Assembly (NCBI GenBank): GCA_016699995.1
Contig: CP064996.1
Coordinates: 528,584 to 592,583, forward strand
Reading direction: 5' to 3'
DNA length: 64,000 bases
Source of the DNA: a bacterium
GTDB lineage: Bacteria; Patescibacteriota; Doudnabacteria; UBA920
The stretch's first letter is position 1. Each line of letters begins with the position of its first letter. Position numbers and translations under genes: made by a program. Of the stretch, positions 9,843-29,224 are shown piece by piece. Below the pieces are notes generated by a model. It had not been told where the DNA came from. It saw only the letters and a program-made list of their open reading frames with translations, and searched no databases.

Positions 9843-10855
9843 ACCCTAACTATAACCTTATCCAAATCTATTCTAGGACTAAAATGAGGCATATCTGGAC
9901 CATAACCGATTCTAAAAAACATTTGAGGTCTCGTACTGATGCCTAAAGCTTGTTTAACCAATTTATAATTATCTCCTATTTCGATAGGTGCGCCCATTAT
10001 TCCAATTCTTAAACCTAAACCCTCCGCTTTTAAAGCTATTTTCTCGAAAGACATACCTGCCTTAACCCAAGCGCTTTCGTTATCTTCTACAGTACTGATA
10101 ACACCATACACTGGTGCATTCTTAAGCCACTCTTCGTGCATCTTGGCTTGAAAGTTTTGCAAGTTAAAATTTCTAATTGCAAATGGTAATAGGTAAGAAA
10201 TTAATTTTGGCACGCCGATCGTGTAGCCAGGCATACCGTCCCGATACTTAACAGAACTTGGCTTTACCCAAGCTGATAATTCGGTAGTAAACTTCTTATC
10301 TGCAAAAGCTTCTTTAACCGATTTAGAAACAATATCTCTAATGGACTGTTTCTGATTTTCTTGGCTCACAAAAGTTGAAACTATTCCCTCTAAGCACTCA
10401 GCAGCCATTTCATCCAATATGGATTGGTCTATTCGTCTGTCTTCAAGAGGCAGTCGGTTAGTTTTACGGTTTACCAGATTATCAAAAGCTTTCTGATCGA
10501 TTGAAGATGATGCTAGAGATTGATAATAAATTGTAAAAATAGTGTTCTTATCAAAATCGAAATTATACTCTGCATCATACTTCAAGCCTAAAGAATCTGA
10601 TCCGTGCAGTAAATTCTGGATCGCTGCGCCGATGCTCAGAAAAAGCTGGCGGTTATTTTCGTCGGAATAAGGTAATTTTCGATCGAAGTTTGCTTTGACA
10701 GTTATTGTTTTATCTCGAATCTCAAAAAGCCATGGTTGAGTATTATGGCTCGAGGGTGCTAAAGATGCTAATAGAACCAAAAAATCCAATCTTGCAGAAT
10801 CTGTTTGTAATTGGTCGTATTTTTCTATTTTTATTTCTGTACGAGGATTGTACAT
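9839..10855 (-). CDS. nitroreductase-family protein (tandem/extended nitroreductase fold), 338 aa
   Basis: SSHNTQPW (SxHNxQPW nitroreductase signature) near the N-terminus. Start overlaps the HK stop (ATGA-type coupling). Confidence 0.6.
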   Translation of the reverse strand: MYNPRTEIKIEKYDQLQTDSARLDFLVLLASLAPSSHNTQPWLFEIRDKTITVKANFDRKLPYSDENNRQLFLSIGAAIQNLLHGSDSLGLKYDAEYNFDFDKNTIFTIYYQSLASSSIDQKAFDNLVNRKTNRLPLEDRRIDQSILDEMAAECLEGIVSTFVSQENQKQSIRDIVSKSVKEAFADKKFTTELSAWVKPSSVKYRDGMPGYTIGVPKLISYLLPFAIRNFNLQNFQAKMHEEWLKNAPVYGVISTVEDNESAWVKAGMSFEKIALKAEGLGLRIGIMGAPIEIGDNYKLVKQALGISTRPQMFFRIGYGPDMPHFSPRIDLDKVIVRV

Positions 10856-10880
10856 TTAATTTATTATACCACAAAATTGG

Positions 10881-10904
10881 AAAAACCGGCCGGGCCGGTT
10901 TTGT
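10881..10904 (-). terminator. rho-independent terminator right after the ammonia-lyase remnant stop
   Basis: Minus strand: aaaaccggcccggccggttttt plus T-run. Confidence 0.6.
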
Positions 10905-11180
10905 TTAATTCTGAATTAAATCCTTTTTTAGTTTTTCAATCTCTTTGTATATCAAAGCGTCGTCAGCATAGAAAGGAACCTTTGATCTCACATATTCATA
11001 AGTTTCAGCATTGCCTTTACCAGCCTTTAATGGACTTCGCAATTCAACAGCCTGGGCAGCTGCCGCTAACTCGACTACCAAAATTTCAAATGCCATGTTT
11101 ATAATGTCTCTGCATTTTCGAGCAGCGGTCGTCGCGAAGCTTACGTAGTCTTCCTGGTTAGCAGAAGTAGGGATAGAAAC
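10905..11180 (-). pseudogene. hutH: C-terminal remnant (~90 codons) of an aromatic amino-acid (histidine/phenylalanine) ammonia-lyase; 5' part missing
   Basis: Minus-strand frame reads IPTSANQEDYVSFATTAARKCRDIINMAFEILVVELAAAAQAVELR..., matching the HAL/PAL C-terminus (SIPTSANQEDHVSMG..AARK; AIELLAAAQALD). The frame opens at a stop immediately adjacent to the res gene end at 11180. Confidence 0.6.
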
Positions 11181-13780
11181 TATTCAAGATCATCCAATTC
11201 TTCTAATAAATTTTCTAATTCACACCTAAATTTTTCTTGGCCTTTTAATATTCTCCCATCCTTCAAATACTCAAAAAATGTAGAATATCCTTCTGGACTC
11301 AAGAAATGAAAAATGTATTTTTGTTTAATTTTATTTTCCTCTAATTTATTGTTCAACCTCTCAAAATGTTCTTTCGCATATTTGTATTTTGCCTTGTTTT
11401 CATCGCTGTCGTCTTTGTCCGCTTTTATCTCAACAACAACAAAATAATCTACATTATCTTTTGTGATCTTGATAAAGAAGTCAGGATTAAACATCCCAAT
11501 CTTTTGGTGATTTGATGGTCTCCATGAATACTCAATGCCATAAAATCCACGATCCCGAGATTTTAACCACGCATCAATTTTCTCCGCAATATCCTTTTTG
11601 CAAAGGTTCTCGATGAATCTTCGTTCTGGTTCTGCGTTAGAAAAAACAACATTGACGGGGGTCTTAAACAAAAACTCATTTTGTTCCTTGTCGGCACTCT
11701 TGGGGAAACTCTCATCTTCTTTGAGCTTCTGCATTATGTTTCGTTGTTCATCGTCAAAGATCTCATTCTCCCAGTTGTTTGTGTAGAATAATGAATATCC
11801 ACGCCTAAAATTACCAACACCAGAACTTTCGCGGATGATATTTTTTGTAGAAATAACAACGGGTTCATTTACTTTTAATTGTGGCACAACTGTCTTGCTC
11901 TTTTTTCGCAGAAGTGTAGCAAAGGTATTGAGAATCTTATTGACATTTTTTTCGATGATTTGATCACCCTTAATACCAACGTTTTTCATGGATTTGAGAA
12001 TGATCTCTCGGATTTTTTCTTTCGGTGGGAGGTTATTTTGTGTGTACTGCTCTTCCCCGAGTTTCAATATTCTTCCTTCCCAATCTCTAATCTCAAATTC
12101 CTCATAGATTCTGTCCACCACTTCTTGAACAGTCCAAGTTCCGTATTCAATAACATAATTCTTCTCCCGAATATCTTTCGCAGTTATTGATTCATAAGAG
12201 GTGCCTTTTTCTGTTTGTATCACTTGAGAATCCAATTTGATACCTTCTTTTTCAATACGAGAATAATTAACAACTGGATTGGGTTTGTGTTCTACTTCCA
12301 CTTCTTCTTTGGTGTAATCAAGATTGTAAACATCAAAATGATATTTTGATCGGTCATCATTCTTAACAATCTCACTGATTATTCGAGTTTCGATTTCCAA
12401 CACTTCATCAACAAGAGCTTTTATACCTCTGCTCCATGCGTCATGGTTAAAAACAATGATTTTTGGTTGAGGAGTTGTATATGCCTCTGGTAAACGCAAA
12501 CCGCGCCCCAATACTTGTGCGATAAGAAGTTTAGAATTAAACGCCTTATCTTCCCATGGAACGATTTGAAAAACGTTTTTAACATCCCAACCTTCTGTAA
12601 GCATCGAGACAGAAACAATCCATTCAGTCGGATTTTCTCTATGATCAACTGTTTTCAATTTTGATAAATTGCCTTTATGATCCTTATGAGAAGTAACAAT
12701 CAAAACTTTTTCTTCAATACTTTCACGAGGTCGCCCCTCTCTCTTTTCAAGGAAATCAAGCAAATCTTCCATTAAACTTTTTGCCTTGGAAATATCTTTA
12801 GTGATCAAAATTGAAAGAGGTTTGATTTTTGGGTACTTATCAATATTCTCCTTGTGGTTTTGATATATTTTTTGGAACTTTTCATCAGTCCCCGAACTGT
12901 CATCTTTTTGTACATATTCAATATTCTTTACTATTCTATCTTCAATGGCTTCGCGCAAAGAATAGCGATAAATAACATCGTTAAAGTACTCGTTGTCATG
13001 ATACGCTGTACCAGTAAAACCAAGAATGTAACGAAAGTTGAAATCTAGATTTAATAAAAACTCCTTCCACCGCTTCAAACCTTGCGCTTCTGTTGTATTG
13101 CCAGATATTTTATTAAAAATATGGTGAGATTCATCATTAAGCACTAAAACGCGCTCGCCTTGTCTTTGGAAACTATCCTTAATCGATGACCCAGTTGTTT
13201 CATAAACTGCATGGATATTTTCAACACAAATACTTCCGTTTTTGACAGTGATATTTGCATCAACAATGCTTGGGTTTTTATAAAGAGCATTCGCTGGTAT
13301 CGATTTTTTGATTCGTGCATTCCCACTCAAATCCTCAAACTTCTCCAACAGTCCGTCTTCAATCGTCAAAGATGGGCAGAGTACCAAAACTTTATCTACC
13401 AAGCCTAACCCAAGCATGATTTGTGCCACACCATAAATTACATACGATTTTCCTGTACCAGTCGCTAAATCAATGTTTGCAAAAAGTTTATTAGGTAGCT
13501 GTAAATGGTGATGGTAATCGCTAAGGGTCGGATACTTTTCTTGCAGTTCGGGATTTTTATTGTAATTCTCATGTACTAAATCCTCAGTAGTAACATAACG
13601 CCCAGATGCAAGAAAGATAACCGCGTGTTTTATTGCTTCCTTTTGGTATTCTCTGTCTACACACAAGGTATCCAAAAAAGAATCCCATGCGCCCAAATCT
13701 AACTTTGTCGGATCATAGTTTTGATTCACTTTTAGAACCAAGTCTTTTTGTTTGTAAGTTTTAATATCCTGCATAGTCAT
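11180..13780 (-). CDS. res: Type III restriction endonuclease Res subunit (SF2 helicase + C-terminal PD-(D/E)xK nuclease), 866 aa
   Basis: Walker A LATGTGKSYVIYGV. DEAH-like VLNDESHHI. Helicase C motifs. C-terminal DFFIKITKDNVDYFVVVEIKADKDD nuclease-like motif. About 33% GC. Confidence 0.85.
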   Translation of the reverse strand: MTMQDIKTYKQKDLVLKVNQNYDPTKLDLGAWDSFLDTLCVDREYQKEAIKHAVIFLASGRYVTTEDLVHENYNKNPELQEKYPTLSDYHHHLQLPNKLFANIDLATGTGKSYVIYGVAQIMLGLGLVDKVLVLCPSLTIEDGLLEKFEDLSGNARIKKSIPANALYKNPSIVDANITVKNGSICVENIHAVYETTGSSIKDSFQRQGERVLVLNDESHHIFNKISGNTTEAQGLKRWKEFLLNLDFNFRYILGFTGTAYHDNEYFNDVIYRYSLREAIEDRIVKNIEYVQKDDSSGTDEKFQKIYQNHKENIDKYPKIKPLSILITKDISKAKSLMEDLLDFLEKREGRPRESIEEKVLIVTSHKDHKGNLSKLKTVDHRENPTEWIVSVSMLTEGWDVKNVFQIVPWEDKAFNSKLLIAQVLGRGLRLPEAYTTPQPKIIVFNHDAWSRGIKALVDEVLEIETRIISEIVKNDDRSKYHFDVYNLDYTKEEVEVEHKPNPVVNYSRIEKEGIKLDSQVIQTEKGTSYESITAKDIREKNYVIEYGTWTVQEVVDRIYEEFEIRDWEGRILKLGEEQYTQNNLPPKEKIREIILKSMKNVGIKGDQIIEKNVNKILNTFATLLRKKSKTVVPQLKVNEPVVISTKNIIRESSGVGNFRRGYSLFYTNNWENEIFDDEQRNIMQKLKEDESFPKSADKEQNEFLFKTPVNVVFSNAEPERRFIENLCKKDIAEKIDAWLKSRDRGFYGIEYSWRPSNHQKIGMFNPDFFIKITKDNVDYFVVVEIKADKDDSDENKAKYKYAKEHFERLNNKLEENKIKQKYIFHFLSPEGYSTFFEYLKDGRILKGQEKFRCELENLLEELDDLE

Positions 13781-13783
13781 ATT

Positions 13784-15748
13784 TTATACGGTGAAAATTT
13801 CAGCAAAGTCATTACCGTAAACATCAGTATAAATCACCATTATTTGCTTTCCCAATTCAGATTTTTTGAACGAAATTTCTAAACCCTTCTTCTCTATTTT
13901 CTTAAGTTCTGATTTTATATCCTCGTCATCGTCTTCTTTTTTATTTGCTTTCTTTGGCAAAAGTTCATCAGCAAAAAAAGCGTCATCCATTTCGAATGCT
14001 TTTCCATTGTAGCTTTTATCAACAAAGACAGCAGATAGGGTTTCGAAATTTTTCATCCCTTTCTCGTCTTGTGATTTGTCGGATTCAAGTTCTTGGCTAG
14101 TAAAACTCTTAATTAAGATTTTTACTCTATCCTTGTCTTTCTTTATTTCCGACTTTACTTCGGGATGTCGAATAAAGTGGAAACCAATCGCTTCTTCCAA
14201 ATCGTTCACATTCTTTTTACTTTGCGGTTGTCGCAATTTTAGGAATGGTGTTTTGTGGAGCTCTTTAATTACATGATATGGAATCTTGAGGAAGTAGTAT
14301 TTTACCCCGTCAATTTCATGGTAGTTAGAGAGAAAATCAACAAAGTTTGCTGGGGCAATAATATACACGCGACCACTTGCTTTCTTTCCGACAACTGCAT
14401 GTACATCTTTCAGATATTTTTCGTTAATTGTAGAGTTTTTGAAAGTTTGATAATCAAAAATCTTTACTGGGAAATCGCCTTTCATACCCTCAAATTCAAA
14501 CCCCGCAATTTTGTTTTTCTTGATTTCCACTTCAAAAAGCCCAGAGACAAACTCTTGATATTTTTGCCATTCCAAATCAAGTGCTCTTTTTAGATCATAG
14601 ATACCGAGTTGAGCAGTAACAAAACTTTTTGATTTCTTCCCGTACTTTTTATTTTGATCTTCTAAATCCTTTGAATTTTCAATTTGCAAAATGCGCTTTT
14701 GCATTGTGAAATAGGAAAGCTTACCTAGGTCACATGTAATCCATTTTCGTCCTAACTTTTCGGCTATATAAGCGGTTGCGCCAGAACCACCAAAAAAATC
14801 CATCACAATATCGCCTTCAACTGAAGCCGCTTTGATTATTCTCTCGATAAACTTATTTGGCTTCTCTGTCGGGTATCCAGTTCTTTCAACACCGTCTACT
14901 CTCAAACGAGCGGCGACTGAAAACTCCCACCAATCTTCTGGAACTTTTCCCTTTTTTCTTAATTCCTCCAAATCTTCCTCATCCCATCCTTCACCATCAT
15001 CAAAAGCAGTACGAAATGATTGATTAGGGTCTTTGTAAGGAACCCTGATCTGATCTTTGTTAAAAGTCCATTTATCCGATTTTGAGTACCAAAAAATCGT
15101 ATCGTGTTTCCTATTAAATTGCTTCATTTTAGGCGATCCTGGGCCTGTATATACCCAAATAATTTCATTCACAAGATGAAGTTCGCCGAATATCTCATCC
15201 AGTGCCAATTTTATGTAATGAGATTTTTTGTAATCGAGGTGGACAAATATACTTCCATCATCTGCCAATATTTCTTGTGCTAAAATAAGTCTACGTCGCA
15301 AAAACTCAACAAATTCTGCACCTTTCTTTTTGTCATTGTAAGCTTTTGCTCCTTCTTTGTTTAAGAAATCATCGGTAGTCGCAAAAGGTGGATCTATATA
15401 AATAAGCTTTACTTTTCCTTTCACCTTATCTTTTATCAGAGGGTCCTTATTTTCGTAAATGGTTTTAAGGAATTGCAGATTATCACCGAACACGATCATA
15501 TTTTTCCATCCATCCTTAAACGATTCGTATTCATTGCCATTGAAAACTTTTTCAGTTTGAAGAGGGACAGGGAAAACACCATCCTCATTTGCAAGCAAAT
15601 CTTCTTTTCGCATCTTCCCAGCATATACCAACTCATACTCTTTTTGAGTTGTTGGGAAAAGCAAGTATTTAAAATCGAATGGAATTTCTCTCCCGTCTTG
15701 TAGTGTTTTAACTAAAAATTCTGTATCAAATTTAGTGAGTTTTTTCAT
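13784..15748 (-). CDS. mod: Type III RM Mod subunit, N6-adenine (beta-class) DNA methyltransferase, 654 aa
   Basis: Motif IV IYIDPPFAT (DPPF/Y). Motif I VMDFFGGSGATAYIAEKLGRKWI. Immediately upstream of res, on the same strand. AT-rich. Confidence 0.85.
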   Translation of the reverse strand: MKKLTKFDTEFLVKTLQDGREIPFDFKYLLFPTTQKEYELVYAGKMRKEDLLANEDGVFPVPLQTEKVFNGNEYESFKDGWKNMIVFGDNLQFLKTIYENKDPLIKDKVKGKVKLIYIDPPFATTDDFLNKEGAKAYNDKKKGAEFVEFLRRRLILAQEILADDGSIFVHLDYKKSHYIKLALDEIFGELHLVNEIIWVYTGPGSPKMKQFNRKHDTIFWYSKSDKWTFNKDQIRVPYKDPNQSFRTAFDDGEGWDEEDLEELRKKGKVPEDWWEFSVAARLRVDGVERTGYPTEKPNKFIERIIKAASVEGDIVMDFFGGSGATAYIAEKLGRKWITCDLGKLSYFTMQKRILQIENSKDLEDQNKKYGKKSKSFVTAQLGIYDLKRALDLEWQKYQEFVSGLFEVEIKKNKIAGFEFEGMKGDFPVKIFDYQTFKNSTINEKYLKDVHAVVGKKASGRVYIIAPANFVDFLSNYHEIDGVKYYFLKIPYHVIKELHKTPFLKLRQPQSKKNVNDLEEAIGFHFIRHPEVKSEIKKDKDRVKILIKSFTSQELESDKSQDEKGMKNFETLSAVFVDKSYNGKAFEMDDAFFADELLPKKANKKEDDDEDIKSELKKIEKKGLEISFKKSELGKQIMVIYTDVYGNDFAEIFTV

Positions 15749-16279
15749 ATAAATTCTATTTGAGTCCCAAAAAAGTTAATCGAGATAAGTGAAACCATTT
15801 TACCATAAATCACACCTTAAATAAAGGGTTTTAGAGTGACCAAACCATCATTCGGCGTCATTAATCCGTTGCTCGCAAATGCAGAACATACTAAACTGAC
15901 ACCTGACGAGTTTAAAACAACTAAGAAAGTGAGATGCTGTTCTCTGCTCCCCCTAAATCGACAGAACAAGATGAACCGGAAGCTTTTTCTATCTATTCCG
16001 AAATAAGGGAAATGATGAATATGACATATAGGAAAAGCCTACATACCGAGAGATTGTAGAGAATTCATTCAGCAAAGAACTCCCGTGCCATTGAATATTA
16101 TCTGTTTCGCAGGAAGAAGCCCCAAAAACAGCTCGGCAACCTTGGGATTACTTTAGCTTCCACACACCGAATCCTTCTTTTAATTTATGATAATAGCACG
16201 TATATTAATACAGTGAAATTTGGCTCTCACGAGGAATAGCTTGTACAAACCATTTTTAATATAATTTTAATTTAATTTC

Positions 16280-17494
16280 CTACATCCCCATCATCTTAAT
16301 CAGACCATCCCGCTTCTTAGTCTCTGCCTTACTTGGCGGCAAAAAGGCACTATCTAGGTTAAAGTCCGTTCTGCCCGACTTTACGTTTTCCCCTAAAATA
16401 ATCTTGCGCGCTAAATATGTAAGCACGCTGCCGCACAAGTTAGCGGCATTACCCAGTTGCGGCCAAGAATAAATAGTCTTCCCTACCTGCATTACCGACT
16501 CTATCATGCGCACTGTGCTCATTTCTGCACCGGCCATCTTGGCAATTACCCGAGGCAAGTCTTGCGGGTGCACTTTGCTAAATTCCTGCGCCGTCATCTT
16601 GCCTAATATACCGTGCAGAATAGGATACTTTTTGTTTTGGTCGTAACGCTCGACGTCTACGATAATGCTGTCGGCGTTATCGGCGGCCATAATTACGGGA
16701 ATACCAAGTGGACGAGCTAATTCGCGGGCGCGCATCTTAAAGTACGGCTGATCCATTTCTTCTACCAACACATCCAGCTTTGCGGTACCTTTTAAGAACT
16801 TTGGCAAATTTTCTTTGGTTAAGCCATCAGCAAACAACTCTACTTTAGCATACGGATTCATTTCGTAAATCTGCCTAGCTACTGCTACAACCTTGGGTAC
16901 TTCTATATTTACAAACCCGGTACGAATGCGGTTCATGTTAGAGGCCGAAAGCACGTCTAAATCGGCCAACTTAATGTGCCTAGCGCCGCCCGTCATGGCG
17001 ATGGTTAGCGCCACATGGCTGCCTACACTCATGCCTAAAATACCGATTACCGAGTTGTAAAACTTCTTTTGTTCGCTGGCAGTAATTAAATTGCGGTTGC
17101 GGCCGGTGCGCACCTCTTGGTGCATAGCGTCCGGTAAAAAATGAATCACAGTGTGGAGCCAAGGATAGTAAAACCAATTGCCGCTAGTCACGTACTTGTC
17201 GCCCGAGCCGTTTTTGGCGGCAAACTGCTTAAACTCGCCGTGATAGTCTTTGTCGAACCTGTACTTAGGGTTGCGCAGCAAAAACACTTCTTCCAACTGG
17301 ATGGCATACTGGTCGATAACTTTTACCGGACGACGATCTGGCTTTACTCCGTTAGGCAGTTTAAGGCGGCGAATTTGCGCTTCGAAGTTCTTCCGCGCGT
17401 CTAGCTTTACCGGCTTAAACGAACTGCGGTCGAAATTGTCTTTGATTATGATTTTTTTTGCCATAGTTTTATAAACGGCGCCGCAACAGCGCAA
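16280..17494 (-). CDS. ThiF/MoeB/E1-like adenylyltransferase-fold protein with ~130-aa N-terminal extension, 404 aa
   Basis: GILGMSVGSHVALTIAMTGGARHIKLADLDVLSASNMNRI is the classic E1 Rossmann GxGxxG plus the D.D.V..SNLNRQ-like block. Confidence 0.7.
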   Translation of the reverse strand: MRCCGAVYKTMAKKIIIKDNFDRSSFKPVKLDARKNFEAQIRRLKLPNGVKPDRRPVKVIDQYAIQLEEVFLLRNPKYRFDKDYHGEFKQFAAKNGSGDKYVTSGNWFYYPWLHTVIHFLPDAMHQEVRTGRNRNLITASEQKKFYNSVIGILGMSVGSHVALTIAMTGGARHIKLADLDVLSASNMNRIRTGFVNIEVPKVVAVARQIYEMNPYAKVELFADGLTKENLPKFLKGTAKLDVLVEEMDQPYFKMRARELARPLGIPVIMAADNADSIIVDVERYDQNKKYPILHGILGKMTAQEFSKVHPQDLPRVIAKMAGAEMSTVRMIESVMQVGKTIYSWPQLGNAANLCGSVLTYLARKIILGENVKSGRTDFNLDSAFLPPSKAETKKRDGLIKMMGM

Positions 17495-17499
17495 ATTAA

Positions 17500-19047
17500 T
17501 TATTTAATAGTCCACTTTTGCTTGCCGCCCCCTGCAAAGTGAGGCGCGCTTTGGTGTTGCCACAGCTTTACCACCGGCACCATCTTCTTGCTAAAGTTAG
17601 AGTGCAGCACGCGATACTCAGAATTCTTTTTTAACAGCACCTTTATTAACGTATCGCGCAGTGTAGCAATAAACTTCTTAGACAGCTTCGCTCCGGGCTT
17701 AAGTTCGGTATTAACCTCTAATACCGGATTATGCTTTTTGTCGTAAGTGATGCGCATGGCAAACTTGCCAGTCGTATGTTTATTTGTTGCTTTTGTTAAA
17801 TGCGCCTCGCGCACATGCTCCGGGTAAATATTGCCGCCGTACCAGCTCACCACCATATCGCTGCGCTCGTATACGTACACAAACGGCAAATTCCAAACGG
17901 TGTCTTTCAATTTTGCCGTCCTAATCTCTTTATCCAAATCAATGCCGCAGTCTTTAGCTTTGGCCATCACCTCCTTGGCGCTCATTATTCCGCCGCGGTC
18001 CTTGAGGTCATACCTAAACAAGGGCAGGCCGCTAAAAGCCGAGCAGTACAAATTTCCATTGTCGTTTTCGAAATAAAACAGCTCCGGCAAGTATTGCGTT
18101 AGTGTGGGTTGCCTTTCCAAAGCAGCGTCATTTTCGGCAATGCCAGAGAATAACTTAGCTTTAAACTTTTTATTCTTATTGCTTAGTCTGCGCACCAAAA
18201 TCGACAGCGGGGTTTCGTGAGAGTGAGTCCCCTGGTCCACAGTGCCGTAATGATTAAGCGTGGAAGTATAGATATTTTTTAGGCCAGCTTGTTTGGCCAC
18301 ATAGTCGCGAAATGCTTCGGTAAAACCTTCGGCCGAAAAAATTATTCCTAAATTATATTTCTTCCAGTTCAAGCCTTCGCTTAACCCTTGGTCGATGGTG
18401 TCTTTAACAAAGGGAGGATAGCCACCCAAAATAACCTGGTCGTATTTATCGCCTAACTGGCGCATAGCCTTAATGATCTCCTTGCTATTTACGCCTGGAG
18501 TAATAATGCTGATGTCGTAGCCTTTTTGCTGCAAAATCTGTACGGCTTCGTAAGTGAACAGGCCGCCGATCCACGCGCCCATAGCAAACCCGTCAATGTA
18601 TAAAGTGGACTTCTTGTGGATCTGAAAGTTGTTGCGCAAGTACAGCTCAGCGGTTAACGCATACTGCCGGCTCTGCTCATGCGTGCGCGGAAAATAAAAC
18701 GGTTCGCCGGTGGTGCCGGAAGTGGCGGCATAAACGCTCTGCTGTTTGCTTAACACGCCGTCCCAGCACAGCTGCTTAAGCGGATACTTGCGCAGGTAGT
18801 TGTTCTTGTCGATGGTCGGAACCAAAGCAAAATCCGCCGCGCTCTTTATCTTTGCAGGGTTCACTTTGTGCTTTTTTAAAAAGTCCTTGTACGCCGGAAC
18901 CCTCTTGGCCATTTCGTGGAACAGCTTGAGAGCGCGCTGCTCTCCCCGCTTCTGCCAGAAACTTTCCGGCTTGGTCTTTAAGTTCTTTTCTAAGGATGTA
19001 ATATTAGCGGTCTGCAATGATTTGGGAAATGAAAGCTCGTTCTTCAT
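17500..19047 (-). CDS. adenylate-forming ligase of the phenylacetate-CoA ligase (PaaK)/CapK/coenzyme F390 synthetase family, 515 aa
   Basis: P-loop-like YAATSGTTGEPFYFPRT (SGTTGxP). The size and N-terminal motif arrangement are typical of PaaK-like ANL enzymes. Confidence 0.65.
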   Translation of the reverse strand: MKNELSFPKSLQTANITSLEKNLKTKPESFWQKRGEQRALKLFHEMAKRVPAYKDFLKKHKVNPAKIKSAADFALVPTIDKNNYLRKYPLKQLCWDGVLSKQQSVYAATSGTTGEPFYFPRTHEQSRQYALTAELYLRNNFQIHKKSTLYIDGFAMGAWIGGLFTYEAVQILQQKGYDISIITPGVNSKEIIKAMRQLGDKYDQVILGGYPPFVKDTIDQGLSEGLNWKKYNLGIIFSAEGFTEAFRDYVAKQAGLKNIYTSTLNHYGTVDQGTHSHETPLSILVRRLSNKNKKFKAKLFSGIAENDAALERQPTLTQYLPELFYFENDNGNLYCSAFSGLPLFRYDLKDRGGIMSAKEVMAKAKDCGIDLDKEIRTAKLKDTVWNLPFVYVYERSDMVVSWYGGNIYPEHVREAHLTKATNKHTTGKFAMRITYDKKHNPVLEVNTELKPGAKLSKKFIATLRDTLIKVLLKKNSEYRVLHSNFSKKMVPVVKLWQHQSAPHFAGGGKQKWTIK

Positions 19048-19049
19048 AA

Positions 19050-20096
19050 CTAGCGGCCGTTAAAGATTTCTTCTGCCATTTCGTCGGCAATAATATTGGT
19101 GGCGCGGTTCATAGTCTGGCTGCGGCTAAAAATCTCTTTAAGGATCACGACAATGTTGTTTAAGCGGGTCTTAACGCGGGCGCTGTTAAACTGCTTATGC
19201 TCGTACTCATCCACTACAGAAATTAAGCCGCCCGAATTAACCACGTAATCCGGCGCATACATAATGCCCAACGAGTGCAGCAATTCGCCCACAGAACGGT
19301 CCTGCAGCTGGTTGTTGGCGCCGCCGCAAATAATCGGCGCCTTAAGCTTGGTAATAGTCTGCGAAGTCAAAGAGTTACTCAATGCGCAGGGAGAGAATAC
19401 ATCTACATCCGCTTTATAAATAGCGGTCGGCGAAACGACTTCGACCTTTGGGTACTTCTTTTTTATCTCTTTTAAACGAACGCTATCTACATCCGTAATA
19501 ACAATGCGGCCGGCTTTTTTATACAAAATATGCAGCAAGGCTTCGCCGATCTTGCCCACGCCCTGAATAGCAAACGAGCGCTTCTTTAAATCTTTGTTGC
19601 CAAAGCGGGCTTGCACGCAAAACTCAATAGCCTTAAACAAGCCTTGGGCGGTGTACAGCACCGGATTGCTGCGTACTCCGACAATGAACTCGCTATTGGC
19701 GTGCATGATCTTTAAGTCGGAATTGGTTACGCCTACATCGGCTCCAGTTACAAAGTGGCCAGCAAAATAATTAACAGCTTCGGTATAGGAAGCAATGATC
19801 TTCTCCCTATCGGCTTTATTTACACCGGCCGGTAGCAAAATTACACCCTTGCCGCCGCCGTAGTCCAAGCCGGCCATAGCGGCTTTATAAGACATCAAGC
19901 GAGATAAGCGCAAGGCGTCGCGCAAGGCGTCCTCTTTATTGGCATATCTGGCAATACGGGTCGCGCCAAAGCTAGGGCTAGTTAAGCTGCCCCGGTGCAA
20001 GGCGATATAAGCTTCTAATTTGGTTTTTTTGTCGACAGCGAAAGATACCAGCTTATGATTATCAAACTCTTCTAAAATCTCGATATTTACGCTCAT
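19050..20096 (-). CDS. Glu/Leu/Phe/Val-type amino-acid dehydrogenase (leucine/phenylalanine dehydrogenase-like), 348 aa
   Basis: Catalytic GLDYGGGKGVI motif. NAD-binding GVGKIGEALLHIL. Stop is 3 nt from the ligase start. Confidence 0.8.
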   Translation of the reverse strand: MSVNIEILEEFDNHKLVSFAVDKKTKLEAYIALHRGSLTSPSFGATRIARYANKEDALRDALRLSRLMSYKAAMAGLDYGGGKGVILLPAGVNKADREKIIASYTEAVNYFAGHFVTGADVGVTNSDLKIMHANSEFIVGVRSNPVLYTAQGLFKAIEFCVQARFGNKDLKKRSFAIQGVGKIGEALLHILYKKAGRIVITDVDSVRLKEIKKKYPKVEVVSPTAIYKADVDVFSPCALSNSLTSQTITKLKAPIICGGANNQLQDRSVGELLHSLGIMYAPDYVVNSGGLISVVDEYEHKQFNSARVKTRLNNIVVILKEIFSRSQTMNRATNIIADEMAEEIFNGR

Positions 20097-20183
20097 GGAT
20101 ACTTTTTATATAAATATTATAGAGTCGGTGCAGAACCCTTTAAACTTTTTAAATAGGCTCATATATGGTATAGTAAAGGCACT

Positions 20184-20642
20184 ATGGAATCTACTTCATC
20201 AGAAACAAAGAAAAAAATTGTCATTGTCGAGGATGATGTCGCGATGCGCGAAATCGTCGCTCACAAGCTGGTAACCAGTGGCTACGACGTAAAAGAAGCA
20301 GAAGATGGCCAGCAAGGAATCGACGCCATAATCGCCGATAAGCCCAATTTGGTCCTGTTGGACCTAATGCTTCCAGAAGTAGATGGCTTCAAAGTTTTAG
20401 AAACTATCCGCAAGCATTCCGATCCTGTGGTAGCCAAAACCCCGGTCATCATTCTCAGTAACCTCTGGAGCAATAAAGACATCCTCAAGACTAAGGCACT
20501 CAATGTGCAAGCTTATCTTGTGAAGGCCTACTTTACCACAGAAGAAATTCTTAAAAAAGTACAAGAGGTGATGGCTAATCCCAATAAATCGGCCGAACTT
20601 TCGGTTAGCAACCAAGCCGGCGCTCCGGCCATTAATCAGTAA
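20184..20642 (+). CDS. single-domain CheY-like response regulator receiver, 152 aa
   Basis: IVIVEDD...LVLLDLMLPEVDG...VIILS: the acidic pocket, phospho-acceptor Asp and conserved Thr/Lys positions are all present. Confidence 0.8.
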   Translation: MESTSSETKKKIVIVEDDVAMREIVAHKLVTSGYDVKEAEDGQQGIDAIIADKPNLVLLDLMLPEVDGFKVLETIRKHSDPVVAKTPVIILSNLWSNKDILKTKALNVQAYLVKAYFTTEEILKKVQEVMANPNKSAELSVSNQAGAPAINQ

Positions 20643-21252: not shown

Positions 21253-21885
21253 TTAGTCCTTAACTAATTCAGCCTTCACAATATATCTTTTGAGGGCCGT
21301 GCCAATCGGGTATGAAGTCTGCAGGGTCAAGATGCGCTTGCCTCTGGTGTTTTGCTCGAGCTGTTTGACGTCGTTGCTTTCTACTACGAACTTATCATAA
21401 ACTCTATAGACGTACTTCTCGCCCTCTTTGTTAGTAACGCTCACTTCGGCGCCGATTTGGATTTTAGGCAGCAACGCAAACACAGTTTTGTAATCACCCT
21501 TGCTAAAAGCAAAGTCGGACGAGTGGCCAAAGATGTAGCTATTGCCTTCGGCGCCAAACTCCGCGGTGCCGGGATAATGAACAACGCCGTTGGCTAGCGC
21601 GGCTTGAAACACCGGTTCGTTAGATTCGGTCACATACTGAATCGGTGCAACTACATCCAACGAAGGAATTTGAAGCTGGCTCGGCTCTTCTACAACTGGT
21701 CGCTCGCGGCGAATGTTCTCGCGCTGCTGTTCTGTTACAAATACCTGACTGGTGTAATAGCGAAGCTGCTTGAAGAAATATTCGTTGTTTAAGAGCGCGA
21801 AGATTGCTGCTGCCACGAGGACTGCGATCACTGCCCATTTTATAATTTTACCTAGCATAAATTGAATGTGCGCCGAAATGCGCAT
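21253..21885 (-). CDS. sortase-family transpeptidase homologue with Ser in place of the catalytic Cys (protein contains no Cys), 210 aa
   Basis: N-terminal TM anchor. His-motif IFGHSSD. The TLxTC block reads RILTLQTSYPIG (DNA acc ctg cag act tca tac). Arg follows in LKRYIV. Adjacent to an LPRTG-bearing substrate. Confidence 0.65.
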   Translation of the reverse strand: MRISAHIQFMLGKIIKWAVIAVLVAAAIFALLNNEYFFKQLRYYTSQVFVTEQQRENIRRERPVVEEPSQLQIPSLDVVAPIQYVTESNEPVFQAALANGVVHYPGTAEFGAEGNSYIFGHSSDFAFSKGDYKTVFALLPKIQIGAEVSVTNKEGEKYVYRVYDKFVVESNDVKQLEQNTRGKRILTLQTSYPIGTALKRYIVKAELVKD

Positions 21886-21894
21886 TAGTTGTTA

Positions 21895-21930
21895 AAAGAA
21901 AAAACTACCTTATTGCTAAGGTAGTTTTAT
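21895..21930 (-). terminator. rho-independent terminator after the giant surface-protein gene
   Basis: aaaactaccttagcaataaggtagttttttc on the minus strand. Confidence 0.6.
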
Positions 21931-21938
21931 TATATCAC

Positions 21939-24900
21939 TTATTTTTGTTTGCTTGCCTTAACCTCTACGGTCGCATATTTGGGCAATAACACGATGGTTA
22001 ATAATCCCAAAATAGTGAATACAATAGAAGCTGGGGTTCCGGTACGAGGCAATGTTGTAGCGCCTAATACAGAACCAGTAGGAGCGGGAGTTTCTTGGTC
22101 GCTAGGGGTATTAGTAGAATCTCCCAGGACTCGTCCTGTTGGTGGAGGTGGAGTTTGGCCACCGCCGCCTCCGCCCGAGCTTCCGCCAGAGCCGCCATTG
22201 CCGCCGTTGCCGCCGCGGCCATTGTCGAAGTTACCGAAGTTGACCCCTACAGCATCCCCTGCTGAAGTAATTAGCAAAGGTCCTGCTGCAGCATGAGCAG
22301 TTTTAATGAATAGTGAAGCAAAGAATCCTTGGCCAGAGTCGGTAAATAACTCGTTACAGTTATTAACTCCGCCCACGGCTACGTGATATGAATCAGAATC
22401 CACGTCTGGTTCTGTAACGATCCAGCCGCCCGGAGTGCTTTCTGTTACTAAATAGCAACCGGCTACTAGACCAGTAAACTGATAATTACCATTTTCGTCC
22501 GAGGTAGTACTGTCGGTAAAGGCTTCTTCTTCACCTAATTTTTCGATATTAATCTGCCAGCCTGGCAAACCAGACTCGCCTTCGTCTTTTGTGTTGTTAG
22601 CATTGGAATCTTCGTAAACTATTCCGCTAATTTTGTATCCGGAACCGCCGTTGCCGCCACCATTACAATCAAAGGTAACATCGTCCAGCTTGTAAATGAG
22701 CCCCGTTGGGTTATTAGGCTGGTCAAAAGCGTCGTTCTTTACTACAAATTTTAAGGTGTGAGTGCCAGCGGTTAACGCTAACGCGCCAGTCGTAGAAACT
22801 GTAGTAAAACCGCTGTTTGGAGCTGTACTGCCAACCAAAACATCGTCTAGATAAGCTTCTACAGAGTTGTCACCGGCGAAGCTCAATACAGGAGAATTAA
22901 TATTAATTGCCCCCGCAGGAATGGTAAAGGTATGAGAGAATAATCGGTAAGATTCTACGCCGCCGTTATAGCCGGCCGCGCCGCCAAATGTCGGCTGAGT
23001 AGAATCATTGCTTACGTAGCTGGCTCCAGCAATGGCCGAACCGCTCCAAGCTCCAGGATATCCGGTAGAATCCGCTGATTGTGCAAATCCCCAGCTTCCC
23101 AATGGATAATTGCCAATGTTAGTTGGAATTGGAGGTACAGAACCCTCACGAACACCCCAAGACAGAGTTACGCCTGCGGCGCTGGCTACAGAAATCGGCT
23201 CATCTACGCATGGGGCAATCTTTTCTATGTTGTACGCAATACAGTAAATATTCTCTGGGGTTGCTCCGTTAAGATTGATGAATTCTAGGTTGTCTCCGTT
23301 GAAGGCGTCGTCGTAACATCGCAGTGCAGCAAAATCATAACCGCCTTGAGTAACTTCGCTCACCCAGAAGTTGCCATTCTGAATGCCAGCCTGCAATTCT
23401 GCAGACAAAGCCGAGCCCGGACCATACGCAGCGGTGGTATAAGTACCATTAACGGTAGCTACGGTTTGGTTATCGTCATTTTGGTCTTGATCCGTAGACA
23501 GCAAGAACTGCCAGTTATGAGCCATGGCACAGCCATCCGGAATTTCCTCAGGATCGACGAAGCCGCCTACCAAAGGACTAGGTGAAAATGCGCCATTTGC
23601 ATAGTTATTGAAATAGACATAATTGCCGCCGGTAGCATCGTACGCGTCGCTCATTGCATTTCCTGCAACATCGCTAAAGCTGTCGCAAACTACTTTGATC
23701 AAATGCAGGTTTGGAACAACCGGTTCCGGCTGATTGCAGATTTCGTCTACTACACAAGCGTTAACTAGAGTGAAGCCAGGATTGCCGTCGAGCAATGGAT
23801 TCGGGCCTTCGACTGGACCATTCACAACTACGATATCGCCTTCCCCATCTTCATTCATCCAGCCATCCTGCATAATCTCACCCAAGCTGTATGTGCCGTA
23901 AGGAACATCATTCAAAGTTACACAGCCGTCTTCTTCTGTTACGCCAGAATAGACTTCGTAAATCTTCACAGTTAGCGGGCCGACGTTGTCGCCGAACCAT
24001 GCGGAGCTGCTATTATCAGCATCATTCTGGTTGGCAAAATCATAAACACGGAATTTAGCGGTAGAGCCGCTGCCGGTCATCAGATAGTTATAGGTATGAG
24101 ATGTATTGTAAGGGCCCCATTCTACAAAGCCGTCATCAACCTGAAGCTCAAGCAATTCATCTTGATACCCGCCCTGAGGAGCGTCTAAAACTGTGCTCCA
24201 ACCGTCCGGAGTAGTAAACTTGGCATCTACAGTTTCGAAACTGCGATTGCCCCACGTGCCACTGGCAACGGCCAAGTATTGCTTGCCGTTTTGCAATGTT
24301 GCAGAAGTAGTAGCCCCTAAAGGATTATTAGAGTTTACAGAAACAGTTTCTACTAGCTTGCCTTTTAGGAATACAGTCCAGCCAGATAATGGTTGATCAT
24401 TAGCATCGTTTACCTTACAAACAGTTACTTGAGATTCACAGCCAGTGTCACACTTGTTTACGAGGGTAAAGGTATCGCTGACACCGTCTACATTAGCGGT
24501 TTGGCCTTGGCCAGAAACGTTGGACCAGCCCTGCTGCATAACTTCGTCAACAGTGTAAGTTCCAAAAGGTACGTCTTTGAGGGTAATACAGCCGTTGTCC
24601 CCTGTTGTTCCTTTTAGCACTTTATAAATATCCACAGTTAAGCTGCCGGAGTTATCGGAATAGTTATCGTCCAAAATTCGGAAGTCCATTGCATCAGGAC
24701 CGCCAAGAGTACGGAAAGTAGAGTATTGGTGTGCCGGGTTAAAAGTAGAGCCCCAATCGGTGAACCCTTGATCAATCTGAATACCCAGCCAGCCAGTGTG
24801 AGGGTTTGGAAAATCGTTCACTCTCACCCATGGAGCAAAAGCCCCACCGTAAACAGGATCAGAAGGCAAGCGCTTAGAATACGCTGCATCAGAAGTAGAC

Positions 24901-26837
24901 GCGGCAGGATCGCCAGGGCGATATACGTAAGTACCGCTAGCTTCTACAACATATTGGCCAGCAGGCAAAGTTCCTGCGGTAGAATAGTCCGCGCCATCAG
25001 GATATACAGTCACTGTTTCAATTTTTGGACCCTTCAAATAAACTTCCCAGCCGGACAACGGATTCTGGTTGTTATCTAACTTACAAATAGTAACGTCGGA
25101 CAGACATTCCTGCTTAACGCTAACATCATCTACGAACGCTCCAAAAGAATCGCCCACCCCTTGGTCGCTGATTTCCAAACGAGTGACGCCGCTTGTAGCA
25201 GTAAATGTGTAAACATGTTCGGTCCAGACAGTATTAAGATTGCCAGTACCATCTTCTATAATTGTATCTAGGACAACTGCACCGGCCTTAACCTGGGTAA
25301 CATTCTGAGAAGAATTCTGCCCTGGACGAGGAGAAGTCCATAGTTTAACGGTATACTTGCCGCCGGGAACAGTGATTAAGTCTTGGAAAAGTTTAACAGA
25401 TCCATTTTCACCGTTAGTCGGGTCAGACGGGCCGCCCCAATCAGAATCTAGCTCAGTATGTTGAGAACCACTCTTAGGGTCCCAACCATTTACACCGCGA
25501 TGCAATTCGGCCTTTGCAATTGCAGGAGCACCGGTTGGATTAACCCAGTCTACACTCCAGCCTAGGCCAGGTGTACCAGAATCACGAACATCCCAGCTAT
25601 TAGAGAGTACAGGAGCTTCGAATCCACCATTAGCTACTAGCTCTGCACTACAAGGCTGTGGTGTTTTTAATTTATTAATAACTGTGTGAGTACATGGTTC
25701 TTGAGAATCTACGTCACAAACAACGTCAACACTTCCAACTGTTTGATCATCAACTTCCCAACCTGCTGGTAAGCCAGTTTCTGTAACGGTAATTTCTTGA
25801 CCATTATTAACGATTATTGCGTCGTGATTACAAACTAAAGTATCACCTTCATACTTACATGTAGCAGGTGCATTGCCGCCGTAGTTTACTGTAATGGTAA
25901 TATCATCTTTATTATCCGGAGCAGGAATTGGATTTCCTTGAGCATCCTGCCAAATTTTTTCAATTTCAATATCTACTGGAGTAGGTGTAGGAACAGGTTC
26001 AAAGTCATAGGTTGTAATCAATGAAGCAGTAGAAACCACCACTTTATCCAAATAACCATCTAATCCAGCGTCAGAAGCGGAAGTATCGCCAACATTCAAA
26101 GCAAACATGCGGATATTTGATCCTGAGCTAAAATTATTCATATCTGCCGGCACAGAAGGGCAAGTGTGAGGCGAAGGGTCTCCACCAGCTCTAGTTGTAA
26201 CTGGATAAGACTGTGTGGGATCAAATGTTACAGTTGTAAAACTACCTGTAGAACCAAAAGTTGGTACAACATTATATCTACAATCATAAAACTTGGTTGG
26301 GCTAGACGAACCAAAGTTTGCATAAACGTTCATGTAGAATTGCTCTTCATCAGTATTGTCACCGCCGCTGCCAATTTTAAAGTCATAGCTAATGCTATTT
26401 ATATCTACTATTAACTTGTTAATAAAATTTTCAGCGACCATCTTGTCTGCTGGTGTAGCTCCAATAGGTAAGACATTTAAGCTCCCCGACCCAATACTTG
26501 CCGCGTTTGTATTAAATGCAAAAGGAGTATCTGTGGAAGTATCACGGTTAAACATCCAGCCAGGTTGGTTTTCTCCAGCAGCTGTGTCGCCAGTAATAAT
26601 TATAGTATTACTTGGAATTGCTGGTGTATCTAAACTCTCACAACCACCCTGAGGCACAGGGTATACATCACCATGATTAATATGGGTCTGCAATGAATTT
26701 GAGTTTACACTTAAGCTATTGTATCCATTGCCAGTTTTGTGGCAAACATCAACAAAAGTTGTTGCCGCATAAGTGGTGGAGAGAGGTGCAAGCACTGTGC
26801 TTACCAAAGCAAAGCGCGATACGCCTTGATATGCCAA
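21939..26837 (-). CDS. giant (1632 aa) secreted cell-surface protein with LPXTG-type (LPRTG) C-terminal sorting signal, repeated SpaA/SdrD-B/prealbumin-like Ig domains, DUF642-like jelly-roll region and Gly-rich linker
   Basis: Signal peptide MAYQGVSRFALVSTVLAPLSTTYAA. Internal repeats (NPLSGWEVYLKG / QPLSGWTVFLKG; GTYTVDEVMQQGW / GTYSLGEIMQDGW). SdrD-B-like block SGIVYEDSNANNTKDEGESGLPGW...NGNYQFTGL. C-terminal LPRTG, then a hydrophobic stretch, then a KYATVEVKASKQK basic tail. Confidence 0.85.
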   Translation of the reverse strand: MAYQGVSRFALVSTVLAPLSTTYAATTFVDVCHKTGNGYNSLSVNSNSLQTHINHGDVYPVPQGGCESLDTPAIPSNTIIITGDTAAGENQPGWMFNRDTSTDTPFAFNTNAASIGSGSLNVLPIGATPADKMVAENFINKLIVDINSISYDFKIGSGGDNTDEEQFYMNVYANFGSSSPTKFYDCRYNVVPTFGSTGSFTTVTFDPTQSYPVTTRAGGDPSPHTCPSVPADMNNFSSGSNIRMFALNVGDTSASDAGLDGYLDKVVVSTASLITTYDFEPVPTPTPVDIEIEKIWQDAQGNPIPAPDNKDDITITVNYGGNAPATCKYEGDTLVCNHDAIIVNNGQEITVTETGLPAGWEVDDQTVGSVDVVCDVDSQEPCTHTVINKLKTPQPCSAELVANGGFEAPVLSNSWDVRDSGTPGLGWSVDWVNPTGAPAIAKAELHRGVNGWDPKSGSQHTELDSDWGGPSDPTNGENGSVKLFQDLITVPGGKYTVKLWTSPRPGQNSSQNVTQVKAGAVVLDTIIEDGTGNLNTVWTEHVYTFTATSGVTRLEISDQGVGDSFGAFVDDVSVKQECLSDVTICKLDNNQNPLSGWEVYLKGPKIETVTVYPDGADYSTAGTLPAGQYVVEASGTYVYRPGDPAASTSDAAYSKRLPSDPVYGGAFAPWVRVNDFPNPHTGWLGIQIDQGFTDWGSTFNPAHQYSTFRTLGGPDAMDFRILDDNYSDNSGSLTVDIYKVLKGTTGDNGCITLKDVPFGTYTVDEVMQQGWSNVSGQGQTANVDGVSDTFTLVNKCDTGCESQVTVCKVNDANDQPLSGWTVFLKGKLVETVSVNSNNPLGATTSATLQNGKQYLAVASGTWGNRSFETVDAKFTTPDGWSTVLDAPQGGYQDELLELQVDDGFVEWGPYNTSHTYNYLMTGSGSTAKFRVYDFANQNDADNSSSAWFGDNVGPLTVKIYEVYSGVTEEDGCVTLNDVPYGTYSLGEIMQDGWMNEDGEGDIVVVNGPVEGPNPLLDGNPGFTLVNACVVDEICNQPEPVVPNLHLIKVVCDSFSDVAGNAMSDAYDATGGNYVYFNNYANGAFSPSPLVGGFVDPEEIPDGCAMAHNWQFLLSTDQDQNDDNQTVATVNGTYTTAAYGPGSALSAELQAGIQNGNFWVSEVTQGGYDFAALRCYDDAFNGDNLEFINLNGATPENIYCIAYNIEKIAPCVDEPISVASAAGVTLSWGVREGSVPPIPTNIGNYPLGSWGFAQSADSTGYPGAWSGSAIAGASYVSNDSTQPTFGGAAGYNGGVESYRLFSHTFTIPAGAININSPVLSFAGDNSVEAYLDDVLVGSTAPNSGFTTVSTTGALALTAGTHTLKFVVKNDAFDQPNNPTGLIYKLDDVTFDCNGGGNGGSGYKISGIVYEDSNANNTKDEGESGLPGWQINIEKLGEEEAFTDSTTSDENGNYQFTGLVAGCYLVTESTPGGWIVTEPDVDSDSYHVAVGGVNNCNELFTDSGQGFFASLFIKTAHAAAGPLLITSAGDAVGVNFGNFDNGRGGNGGNGGSGGSSGGGGGGQTPPPPTGRVLGDSTNTPSDQETPAPTGSVLGATTLPRTGTPASIVFTILGLLTIVLLPKYATVEVKASKQK

Positions 26838-29217: not shown

Positions 29218-29224
29218 AGTTCTT

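Follow-up and report, generated by a model that had tools for sequence, protein, structure and literature searches.

What do an amino-acid dehydrogenase, an adenylate-forming ligase and an E1-like protein do together when they are encoded side by side in a member of the candidate phyla radiation (CPR, Patescibacteria)? We addressed this question for positions 16280 to 20096 of a 64,000-nucleotide stretch (the window in what follows) of contig CP064996.1 from assembly GCA_016699995.1, classified within Patescibacteriota as Doudnabacteria (UBA920); the nearest relatives of the window are Saccharibacteria metagenome-assembled genomes (MAGs). On balance we lean towards a small-molecule pathway of the oxazolone type, in which a ThiF-like cyclase and a flavin oxidase (FDO) would build a heterocycle, independently of CoA, from probably aromatic amino acids. 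The three genes from which the question arose are as follows (E1 residue numbers refer to the 394-aa protein).

19050-20096, minus strand: DH, an NAD(P)-dependent amino-acid dehydrogenase of the Leu/Phe/Trp dehydrogenase branch with an aromatic-type pocket (348 aa)
17500-19047, minus strand: LIG, a divergent PaaK-fold adenylate-forming ligase and CPR-specific partner of E1 (515 aa)
16280-17464, minus strand: E1, a predicted TrzS/Rv1355c-type ThiF-like ATP-dependent cyclase, equivalent to the N-terminal half of TrzS (394 aa, counted from the ATG)

The open reading frame (ORF) list of the window bears out the three genes as initially annotated, all on the minus strand and head-to-tail, and the GGGKG motif of DH and the SGTTGEP motif of LIG are both present. 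The spacing of 2–5 nt that had been reported holds for DH and LIG, which are 2 nt apart (junction TAG-tt-ATG), but for LIG and E1 it depends on the start codon: the gap is 5 nt if translation begins at the TTG of the mechanically called ORF (16280-17494, 404 aa) and 35 nt if it begins at the ATG at 17464, the annotated start of an identical public protein (P0121, 394 aa). The extra N-terminal domain ascribed to E1 corresponds to the ~120 aa that precede its Pfam ThiF domain (residues 132-271 of the 404-aa ORF, 122-261 in the 394-aa numbering). The flanking ORFs likewise agree with the described setting, with type III restriction-modification (RM) genes on one side and a sortase-like ORF plus a 1632-aa surface protein (21253-26837) on the other. 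Rfam and tRNA scans of the window returned no matches.

The initial annotation had proposed a neighbourhood survey as the means of deciding whether the genes belong together, and we carried one out on 89 related loci from genome and metagenome collections, using tblastn and ORF clustering. A recurrent set emerged, comprising a receiver, DH or a class I/II aminotransferase, LIG, E1, an FDO of about 335 aa and a histidine kinase with a HisKA_7TM domain. Among the 38 loci with sufficient flanks (LIG bordered by >=3.5 kb on its upstream side and >=4.5 kb on its downstream side), E1 adjoins LIG in all 38; DH is found in 25/38 and the aminotransferase in 9/38, never together, and the FDO, the seven-transmembrane (7TM) kinase and the receiver are present in 26/38, 31/38 and 20/38, respectively. 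Gene order varies (for example, E1-DH-LIG-kinase) while the gene set is kept. The receiver homologue either follows the kinase or stands at the other end of the cluster, upstream of DH or the aminotransferase and on the opposite strand. SAM (S-adenosylmethionine) methyltransferases, alpha/beta-hydrolases (free or fused to the FDO) and singletons lacking a family match occur occasionally inside clusters; the methyltransferases and hydrolases would fit tailoring or turnover of a small molecule.

Fusion proteins bind the genes together more tightly still. A full HMMER scan of 1.84 billion representatives with LIG (E <= 1e-30) recovered 515 relatives, four of which are longer proteins whose Pfam architectures are DH-LIG (P0260), LIG-ThiF (P0242), ThiF-LIG (P0311) and DH-LIG-ThiF (P0309). 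P0260 recurs in four accessions from Parcubacteria MAGs and P0309 is shared by two from Patescibacteria, so that neither is an artefact of a single assembly. Natural E1-FDO fusions of 718–761 aa occur as well (loci L042, L043, L066 and L089), and in the three that were scanned (L043, L066 and L089) the Rv1355c profile is matched in one stretch from ~12 to 646. The conserved adjacency and the fusions together exclude independent distribution and chance adjacency, and uphold the earlier view of DH, LIG and E1 as one functional unit; that these genes form one pathway is close to certain.

The conserved unit is also larger than initially annotated, since in the window it reaches past the RM genes to the FDO and the kinase and upstream to the receiver.

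9839-10855, minus strand: FDO, an Acg-family FMN-binding oxidase of the nitroreductase superfamily, assigned by profiles as the split counterpart of the C-terminal half of TrzS
8130-9842, minus strand: 7TM-receptor histidine kinase (Pfam HisKA_7TM, HisKA and HATPase_c)
20184-20642, plus strand: single-domain response regulator, receiver only, divergent from DH (152 aa; Pfam Response_reg only)

The FDO and kinase genes overlap by 4 nt at their stop and start codons (ATGA), as read directly from the sequence. In the closest relative of the window, locus L002, DH, LIG and E1 are 74–79% identical to their counterparts here and a syntenic receiver gene is 82% identical. In place of an FDO and a kinase, the genes directly after its E1 (10689-14733) encode a Peptidase_S51 protein and the NMT1/THI5-like binding protein, ATPase and permease of an ABC transporter, and neither an FDO nor a kinase is encoded within 6.8 kb. 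Type IV pilus genes (prepilin peptidase, N_methyl pilins, and T2SSE/F ATPase and platform proteins) stand within a few kb of the cluster in L006/L007/L084, L003, L029, L038, L041 and L073.

To which family does E1 belong? Its best curated match is the NCBIfam 'Rv1355c family' (NF005901; 312 bits, profile positions 31-340 of 722), and the next-best ThiF families (MoeB, ThiF, TcdA and UbaA models) score 63 bits or less. An Rv1355c family protein of Rhodococcus qingshengii, so named by PGAP, is 34% identical over 331 aa (E 1e-53), and the two proteins align colinearly, the N-terminal extension and every nucleotide-binding motif included. Invariant among 63 E1 homologues are R122-N123, G144xSVGS, D168xD170, NxNR179 and D238 (within EEMD); the last aligns with the IEECD motif of the Rhodococcus TrzS-family protein and is equated by motif, not by numbering, with D217 of TrzS_Msmeg. 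The AlphaFold2 (AF2) model of E1 (pLDDT 92.5) has a ThiF/MoeB/AclA-like core, with AclA (9egb) as the closest solved structure. From its sequence, then, E1 appears to be specifically of the TrzS/Rv1355c type.

Beyond CPR, a stand-alone TrzS-type ThiF protein encoded on a plasmid of Streptomyces sp. NBC_01471 (L090, 6914-8712) is 40% identical to E1 over 279 aa; its gene overlaps one of the GNAT family, and no FDO is annotated nearby. On the Rhodococcus qingshengii plasmid pLP1 (L091, 2692-7016), an Rv1355c-family gene stands beside a GGDEF-domain gene, echoing the cyclic di-GMP (c-di-GMP) neighbourhood reported for trzAS of Mycobacterium tuberculosis.

The FDO resembles the part of TrzS that is missing from E1. 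It scores 221.1 bits against the NCBIfam Acg family (NF047509; cutoff 199) over profile positions 2-319 of 319, and it also matches positions 369-651 of the Rv1355c profile, the C-terminal half. Pfam assigns it to Nitroreductase and TM1586_NiRdase, and it aligns over its full length with MsAcg (2ymv; E 6.6e-11). E1 and the FDO thus correspond to the two halves of the TrzS/OxzB architecture, that is, to a split TrzS (Rv1355c). Acg/Rv3131-type proteins, which belong to the mycobacterial DosR regulon, have no assigned reaction and are not linked to ThiF proteins; unlike them, the FDO is ThiF-linked or ThiF-fused, as are the FDO-A enzymes.

DH gives an indication of substrate class. It carries both Pfam domains of its family (ELFV_dehydrog_N and ELFV_dehydrog), the GGGKG motif contains the catalytic lysine, and its full-length alignments to PDB entries include tryptophan dehydrogenase (TrpDH) 5b37 (E 7.5e-66) and leucine dehydrogenases (LeuDHs; E about 1e-61 to 1e-65). 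We take two pocket positions to distinguish substrate class, A113/V291 in LeuDH versus G124/L307 in phenylalanine dehydrogenase (PheDH). At these positions DH resembles TrpDH 5b37, both having G and L; in all four LeuDH structures compared, the residues are A and V. Among 47 orthologues of the cluster DH, G is conserved in 47/47, L in 43/47 and the catalytic lysine in 47/47. These residues and their conservation among orthologues point more towards bulky or aromatic substrates than towards branched-chain ones, and the branched-chain amino acids suggested in the initial annotation are not favoured. DH shares its ELFV domains, catalytic lysine and G/L positions with the phenylalanine and tryptophan dehydrogenases (PheDH; NpTrpDH/ScyB, PDB 5b37). 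It differs from ScyB in falling below the cutoff of the NCBIfam ScyB Trp-DH equivalog (278 versus 600 bits), with no scytonemin genes present, and from the whole group in that its place in the cluster can be taken by a functionally interchangeable class I/II aminotransferase.

LIG is harder to place by sequence. It carries TSGTTGEP and has no Pfam match; profiles for PaaK, FlxY and F390 synthetase reach only 23–33 bits (PaaK matches weak, E about 1e-8), and the PaaK equivalogs TIGR02155 (cutoff 646) and NF041878 (cutoff 700) give 31.7 and 32.7 bits, with only the N-terminal half aligning. The fold of its AF2 model (pLDDT 88) is nevertheless PaaK-like: Foldseek matches PaaK1 (2y27) with E 1.6e-21 and TM-scores of 0.66 (TMq, query-normalised) and 0.78 (TMt, target-normalised) at 15–18% identity, and the best PDB fold matches are PaaK1/2, BT_0428, 6siw, HCL and ClxA. 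Among these, ClxA and 6siw are ligases that form esters or amides independently of CoA. A complete set of ANL motifs is invariant among 71 LIG homologues, namely TSG-G-P (A3 motif), YG-D, RY-D-G, ER-D and a C-terminal lysine (K509). LIG thus has the two-domain ANL fold, A3 motif, hinge and C-terminal lysine motif of PaaK and its relatives (BT_0428, HCL, 6siw and ClxA). Unlike PaaK, it is about 85 residues longer, scores under every curated family cutoff and stands in a biosynthetic, E1-linked setting rather than a paa catabolic operon; ORF clustering found no paa genes in any of 90 loci. The family is large, with >2200 clusters at 90% identity and the 515 relatives of the HMMER scan as clusters at 50% identity.

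A LIG homologue outside CPR, 34% identical and encoded by Nonomuraea gerenzanensis (L092, 6699-15966), directly follows a HisKA_3 kinase and a LuxR-type response regulator. A response regulator-SpoIIE (RR-SpoIIE) phosphatase and a hybrid kinase are encoded nearby, and there is no E1 or DH. This arrangement hints at a broader tie between the ligase family and two-component signalling. The LIG homologues of L092 and L093, located on actinobacterial and Gemmatimonadota replicons, have no adjoining E1 or DH and are of no help in assigning the substrate of LIG.

Three characterized systems give these assignments a biochemical frame. TrzS (Rv1355c) converts N-acyl-tryptophan to N-acyl-tryptazolone in an ATP- and O2-dependent reaction in which cyclization precedes desaturation; D217 of its ThiF motif is essential, and the closest solved structure to its FDO domain is Acg (PMC12856293). 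TyzB/TyzC, which are split, and OxzB, which is fused, carry out the same reaction on tyrosine/phenylalanine (PMC10404671; bioRxiv 10.1101/2020.06.11.147165). The natural N-acyl oxazolones known so far derive from Tyr, Phe and Trp, and a role in signalling has been suggested by the authors of the TrzS study (PMC12856293). According to a 2025 review, ThiF proteins of the TrzS/TyzB/OxzB type are the only ThiF-like enzymes known to act on a small-molecule substrate (PMC12596934).

How far does the CPR cluster resemble them? The ThiF half of TrzS, from the TrzAS system (Rv1356c/Rv1355c) of Mycobacterium and Rhodococcus (PMC12856293), represents the closest family of E1 among the NCBIfam profiles. 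As in TrzS, the CPR E1 is partnered by an Acg-like FDO, fused to it in some CPR genomes, and the DH pocket points, like the substrate of TrzAS, to an aromatic amino acid. Signalling genes are neighbours in both settings, c-di-GMP genes at trzAS of M. tuberculosis (and the GGDEF gene of L091) and a two-component system here. Unlike TrzAS, most CPR loci encode E1 and the FDO separately, E1 scores under the equivalog cutoff, the FDO is about 20% identical, and the cluster is linked to a 7TM kinase in a CPR host lineage. A further difference concerns substrate supply: a TrzA-type acyl-CoA-dependent N-acyltransferase, the kind of enzyme by which known oxazolone pathways are defined, is absent, and a PaaK-fold ligase with a DH or aminotransferase stands in its place. 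TyzACB (Rv2336-2338c) and OxzAB (Pseudoalteromonas rubra) follow the same logic, with a ThiF-like cyclase and a nitroreductase-superfamily flavin oxidase acting on an N-acyl aromatic amino acid. Their TyzA and OxzA proteins are acyltransferases like N-acyl homoserine lactone (AHL) synthase or FeeM that use acyl-CoA or acyl-acyl carrier protein (acyl-ACP), and no such gene recurs in the 90 CPR loci. The statement in the initial annotation that no standard pathway has this gene combination is fair as regards the combination, but close characterized relatives exist in OxzAB, TyzACB and TrzAS. We found no paper describing this cluster in CPR, and what is new here is a TrzS/OxzB-type ThiF-FDO core with a different substrate supply and a recurrent two-component link, in a lineage not known for such chemistry.

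These comparisons allow a route to be proposed. E1 would adenylate an N-acylated amino acid, probably an aromatic one, at its alpha-carboxylate, and the amide oxygen would then close an oxazol-5(4H)-one ring; the FDO, using FMN, would desaturate the C-alpha/C-beta bond, as TrzS and TyzB/TyzC do. Since no NAS-type N-acyltransferase is present, LIG is the candidate for making the N-acyl amino acid, which it might do through an acyl-adenylate and direct amide formation that draws on no acyl-CoA pool. DH or the aminotransferase could supply a 2-oxo acid (arylpyruvate) from an amino acid, and a 2-oxo acid is probably an intermediate because the two enzymes replace each other without ever co-occurring and because some proteins join DH to LIG. 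On the most economical reading this 2-oxo acid would itself be the acyl donor for LIG, and the product would derive from two amino acids, ATP and NAD+. The earlier idea, in which a keto acid and an amino acid are interconverted before ATP is used twice in succession to activate a carboxylate, remains plausible for the unit. More speculatively, a labile, hydrophobic product might be sensed by the 7TM kinase and receiver, or its synthesis might be controlled through them.

Several observations weigh against this oxazolone pathway. Everything past the family assignments is inferred from sequence, and the E1 assignment falls short of the curated definition, with E1 (312 bits) and the scanned E1-FDO fusions (352–382 bits) all under the Rv1355c equivalog cutoff of 476. 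The FDO of the window is only 20% identical to the FDO domain of TrzS and is closer to Acg-type proteins; moreover, around one in three of the full-flank loci lacks a nearby FDO. When 1002 ORFs from 90 loci were clustered all against all, no recurrent N-acyltransferase or further core gene emerged, and the function of LIG as an amide synthetase is our assumption. The role of DH is the weakest link, its fusion to LIG showing coupling and not the order of steps. TrzS and TyzC need O2, and many CPR live anoxically; the link to the kinase may be purely regulatory. Finally, the loci were picked by similarity to LIG (48–81% identity), and several duplicate one contig.

The most serious rival keeps the same enzymes and changes the product. 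LIG would join a 2-oxo acid, or another acid, to an amino acid, and the carboxylate adenylated by E1 would meet a different nucleophile (the enol oxygen, or an amine after transamination), giving either a six-membered ring (oxazinone-, diketopiperazine- or pyrazinone-type) or an amide formed between molecules, which the FDO would then desaturate. The scores of E1 and the E1-FDO fusions below the equivalog cutoff leave room for such a departure, as do an FDO that is Acg-like and not clearly of the TrzS FDO subgroup and substrate-supplying enzymes wholly unlike those that the known oxazolone pathways use; cyclic dipeptides, too, are among the compounds that nitroreductase-fold flavoenzymes desaturate. 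We nonetheless regard another ring or amide as unlikely, given that pairing and fusion of ThiF with an FDO is a hallmark of oxazolone chemistry and that oxazolone formation is the sole characterized activity of the closest ThiF clade (PMC12856293, PMC12596934). It is less probable again that E1 acts on a protein or peptide, as a MoeB-, ThiF-, MccB- or PaaA-like enzyme for a ubiquitin-like protein (Ubl), a sulfur carrier or the precursor of a peptide made on ribosomes and modified after translation (RiPP), with LIG and DH modifying or supplying the attached group. Fold searches do liken E1 to ThiF, MoeB, MccB and PaaA, and the N-terminal extensions of MccB and PaaA are peptide clamps; however, the extension of E1 is common to TrzS, which acts on a small molecule. 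Of the 347 intergenic ORFs of 30–120 aa in the 90 loci, none is a conserved precursor peptide or Ubl (the 2 of 347 that end in GG are neither conserved nor near a cluster). E1 has a single cysteine, C344, and no CxxC pairs, and its MoeB, ThiF and UbaA equivalog scores of 19–63 bits lie far under cutoffs of 152–650. The same observations make thiocarboxylation, entertained in the initial annotation, and other Ubl-type E1 chemistry unlikely.

A catabolic or energy pathway would read the cluster differently, with DH deaminating an aromatic or branched amino acid, LIG serving as an ordinary PaaK-like aryl-acetate/acyl-CoA ligase, and E1 and the FDO being unrelated or concerned with cofactors or redox. 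The PaaK fold of LIG, its weak PaaK family matches and the annotation of homologues as phenylacetate-CoA ligase in some sources are in keeping with this. Yet LIG reaches just 32 bits against the PaaK cutoffs of 646–700, neither a 2-oxoacid decarboxylase or oxidoreductase nor paa genes recur in the neighbourhood, and the LIG-ThiF and DH-LIG-ThiF fusions bind E1 into the same pathway as LIG, so that we think a catabolic function highly improbable. Least credible of all is a function in tRNA modification, with E1 as a TcdA-like dehydratase that forms cyclic t6A (ct6A, also an oxazolone) or a related nucleoside. Some homologues bear the JGI name 'tRNA threonylcarbamoyladenosine dehydratase', and TcdA is among the weak PDB sequence matches (E about 4e-4), but E1 scores 28.9 bits against the TcdA equivalog (NF011696; cutoff 304) and its obligate pairing and fusion with LIG, DH and the FDO have no counterpart in ct6A synthesis. 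We therefore retain the oxazolone-type pathway as our preferred reading.

Why, then, is the unit split in this genome? The RM genes sit between E1 and the FDO, separating DH-LIG-E1 from FDO-kinase, and are not part of the system.

13784-15748, minus strand: type III RM gene, Mod (N6_N4_Mtase)
11180-13780, minus strand: type III RM gene, Res (ResIII/SWI2_SNF2)
20116-20144, minus strand: promoter-like TTTAAA-17-TATAAT directly upstream of DH, the best site of the scan (10/12 matches)
10858-10902, minus strand: GC-rich hairpin with a T-run, terminator-like, then TGgTATAAT (extended -10), 8 nt before the FDO ATG

RM genes lie inside the cluster in none of the other 89 related loci, and their absence there identifies them as an insertion. 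Their G+C content (0.33–0.38) is below that of DH-LIG-E1 (about 0.46). We rejected a simple boundary for a low-GC RM island, as the low-GC tract (9000-16250; 0.33–0.40) also spans the FDO and, within the kinase gene, the 5' third that encodes the 7TM region; the insertion may have come with, or preceded, replacement of neighbouring DNA. A search for flanking repeats as a sign of insertion found only short, chance-level matches. Because a terminator-like hairpin and an extended -10 element precede the FDO, the sequence suggests that FDO and kinase now form their own transcription unit. The total of promoter-like sites in the window is no higher than in shuffled sequence, and the site upstream of DH is positional evidence only. 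An RM insertion can evidently divide a cluster of this kind and leave all of its genes in place.

Between Res and the FDO lies a further relic, a 63-aa ORF remnant (10906-11097, minus strand) of a truncated gene that is absent from all 89 related loci. Its similarity is confined to the very C-terminal end of enzymes of the aromatic-amino-acid-lyase family (ergothionase 6s7j, residues 434-485 of 497, E 6.7e-6; Pfam Lyase_aromatic profile, positions 430-465 of 466, 14.9 bits).

The window holds other genes of related interest. The initial annotation called E1 the second E1-like gene, in agreement with a separate 247-aa ThiF-domain ORF (29225-29968, minus strand; 47 bits), which comes after two large ORFs and abuts one of 215 aa. 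It is accompanied by ORFs at 28696-29343, 29925-31667 and 31664-33271 (minus strand), the 580- and 535-aa ones without a Pfam match. We considered and rejected it as a paralogue of E1, as the E1-family hidden Markov model (HMM) does not detect it; with its neighbours it may be part of another, uncharacterized E1-containing system. Three alanyl-tRNA-synthetase-related ORFs are also present: a 281-aa fragment at 2468-3313 (plus strand), one of 430 aa with the catalytic core only at 4611-5903 (minus) and one of 593 aa with a tRNA_SAD domain at 42845-44626 (minus). An aldo/keto reductase spread over two overlapping ORFs (148 and 131 aa; 5887-6673, minus strand) is probably a frameshifted pseudogene.

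Our analysis provides a testable biochemical assignment for a cluster that is widespread in CPR/Patescibacteria and has so far been annotated only generically. Should it prove correct, ThiF/FDO oxazolone chemistry would extend beyond the Proteobacteria and Actinomycetota, with their acyl-CoA-dependent acyltransferases, and would include a route in which an adenylating ligase is combined with an aminotransferase or a dehydrogenase of amino acids. To our knowledge, CPR largely lack fatty-acid and CoA metabolism, and a CoA-independent route would suit such organisms. A further, doubtful extension, in a group that as far as we know has almost no secondary metabolism, would be a self-contained signal system found throughout Patescibacteria: an arylpyruvate, made by DH or the aminotransferase, and a second amino acid would be joined by LIG without CoA, cyclized by E1 and desaturated by the FDO, all of this requiring no more than ATP, NAD+ and FMN, and the labile oxazolone-type product would be read by the 7TM kinase and CheY-like receiver as an autoinducer or a cue of host contact. 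Under this assignment, the tight and recurrent link to a 7TM sensor kinase and receiver, with its translational coupling, offers a handle on the physiological role of bacterial oxazolones.

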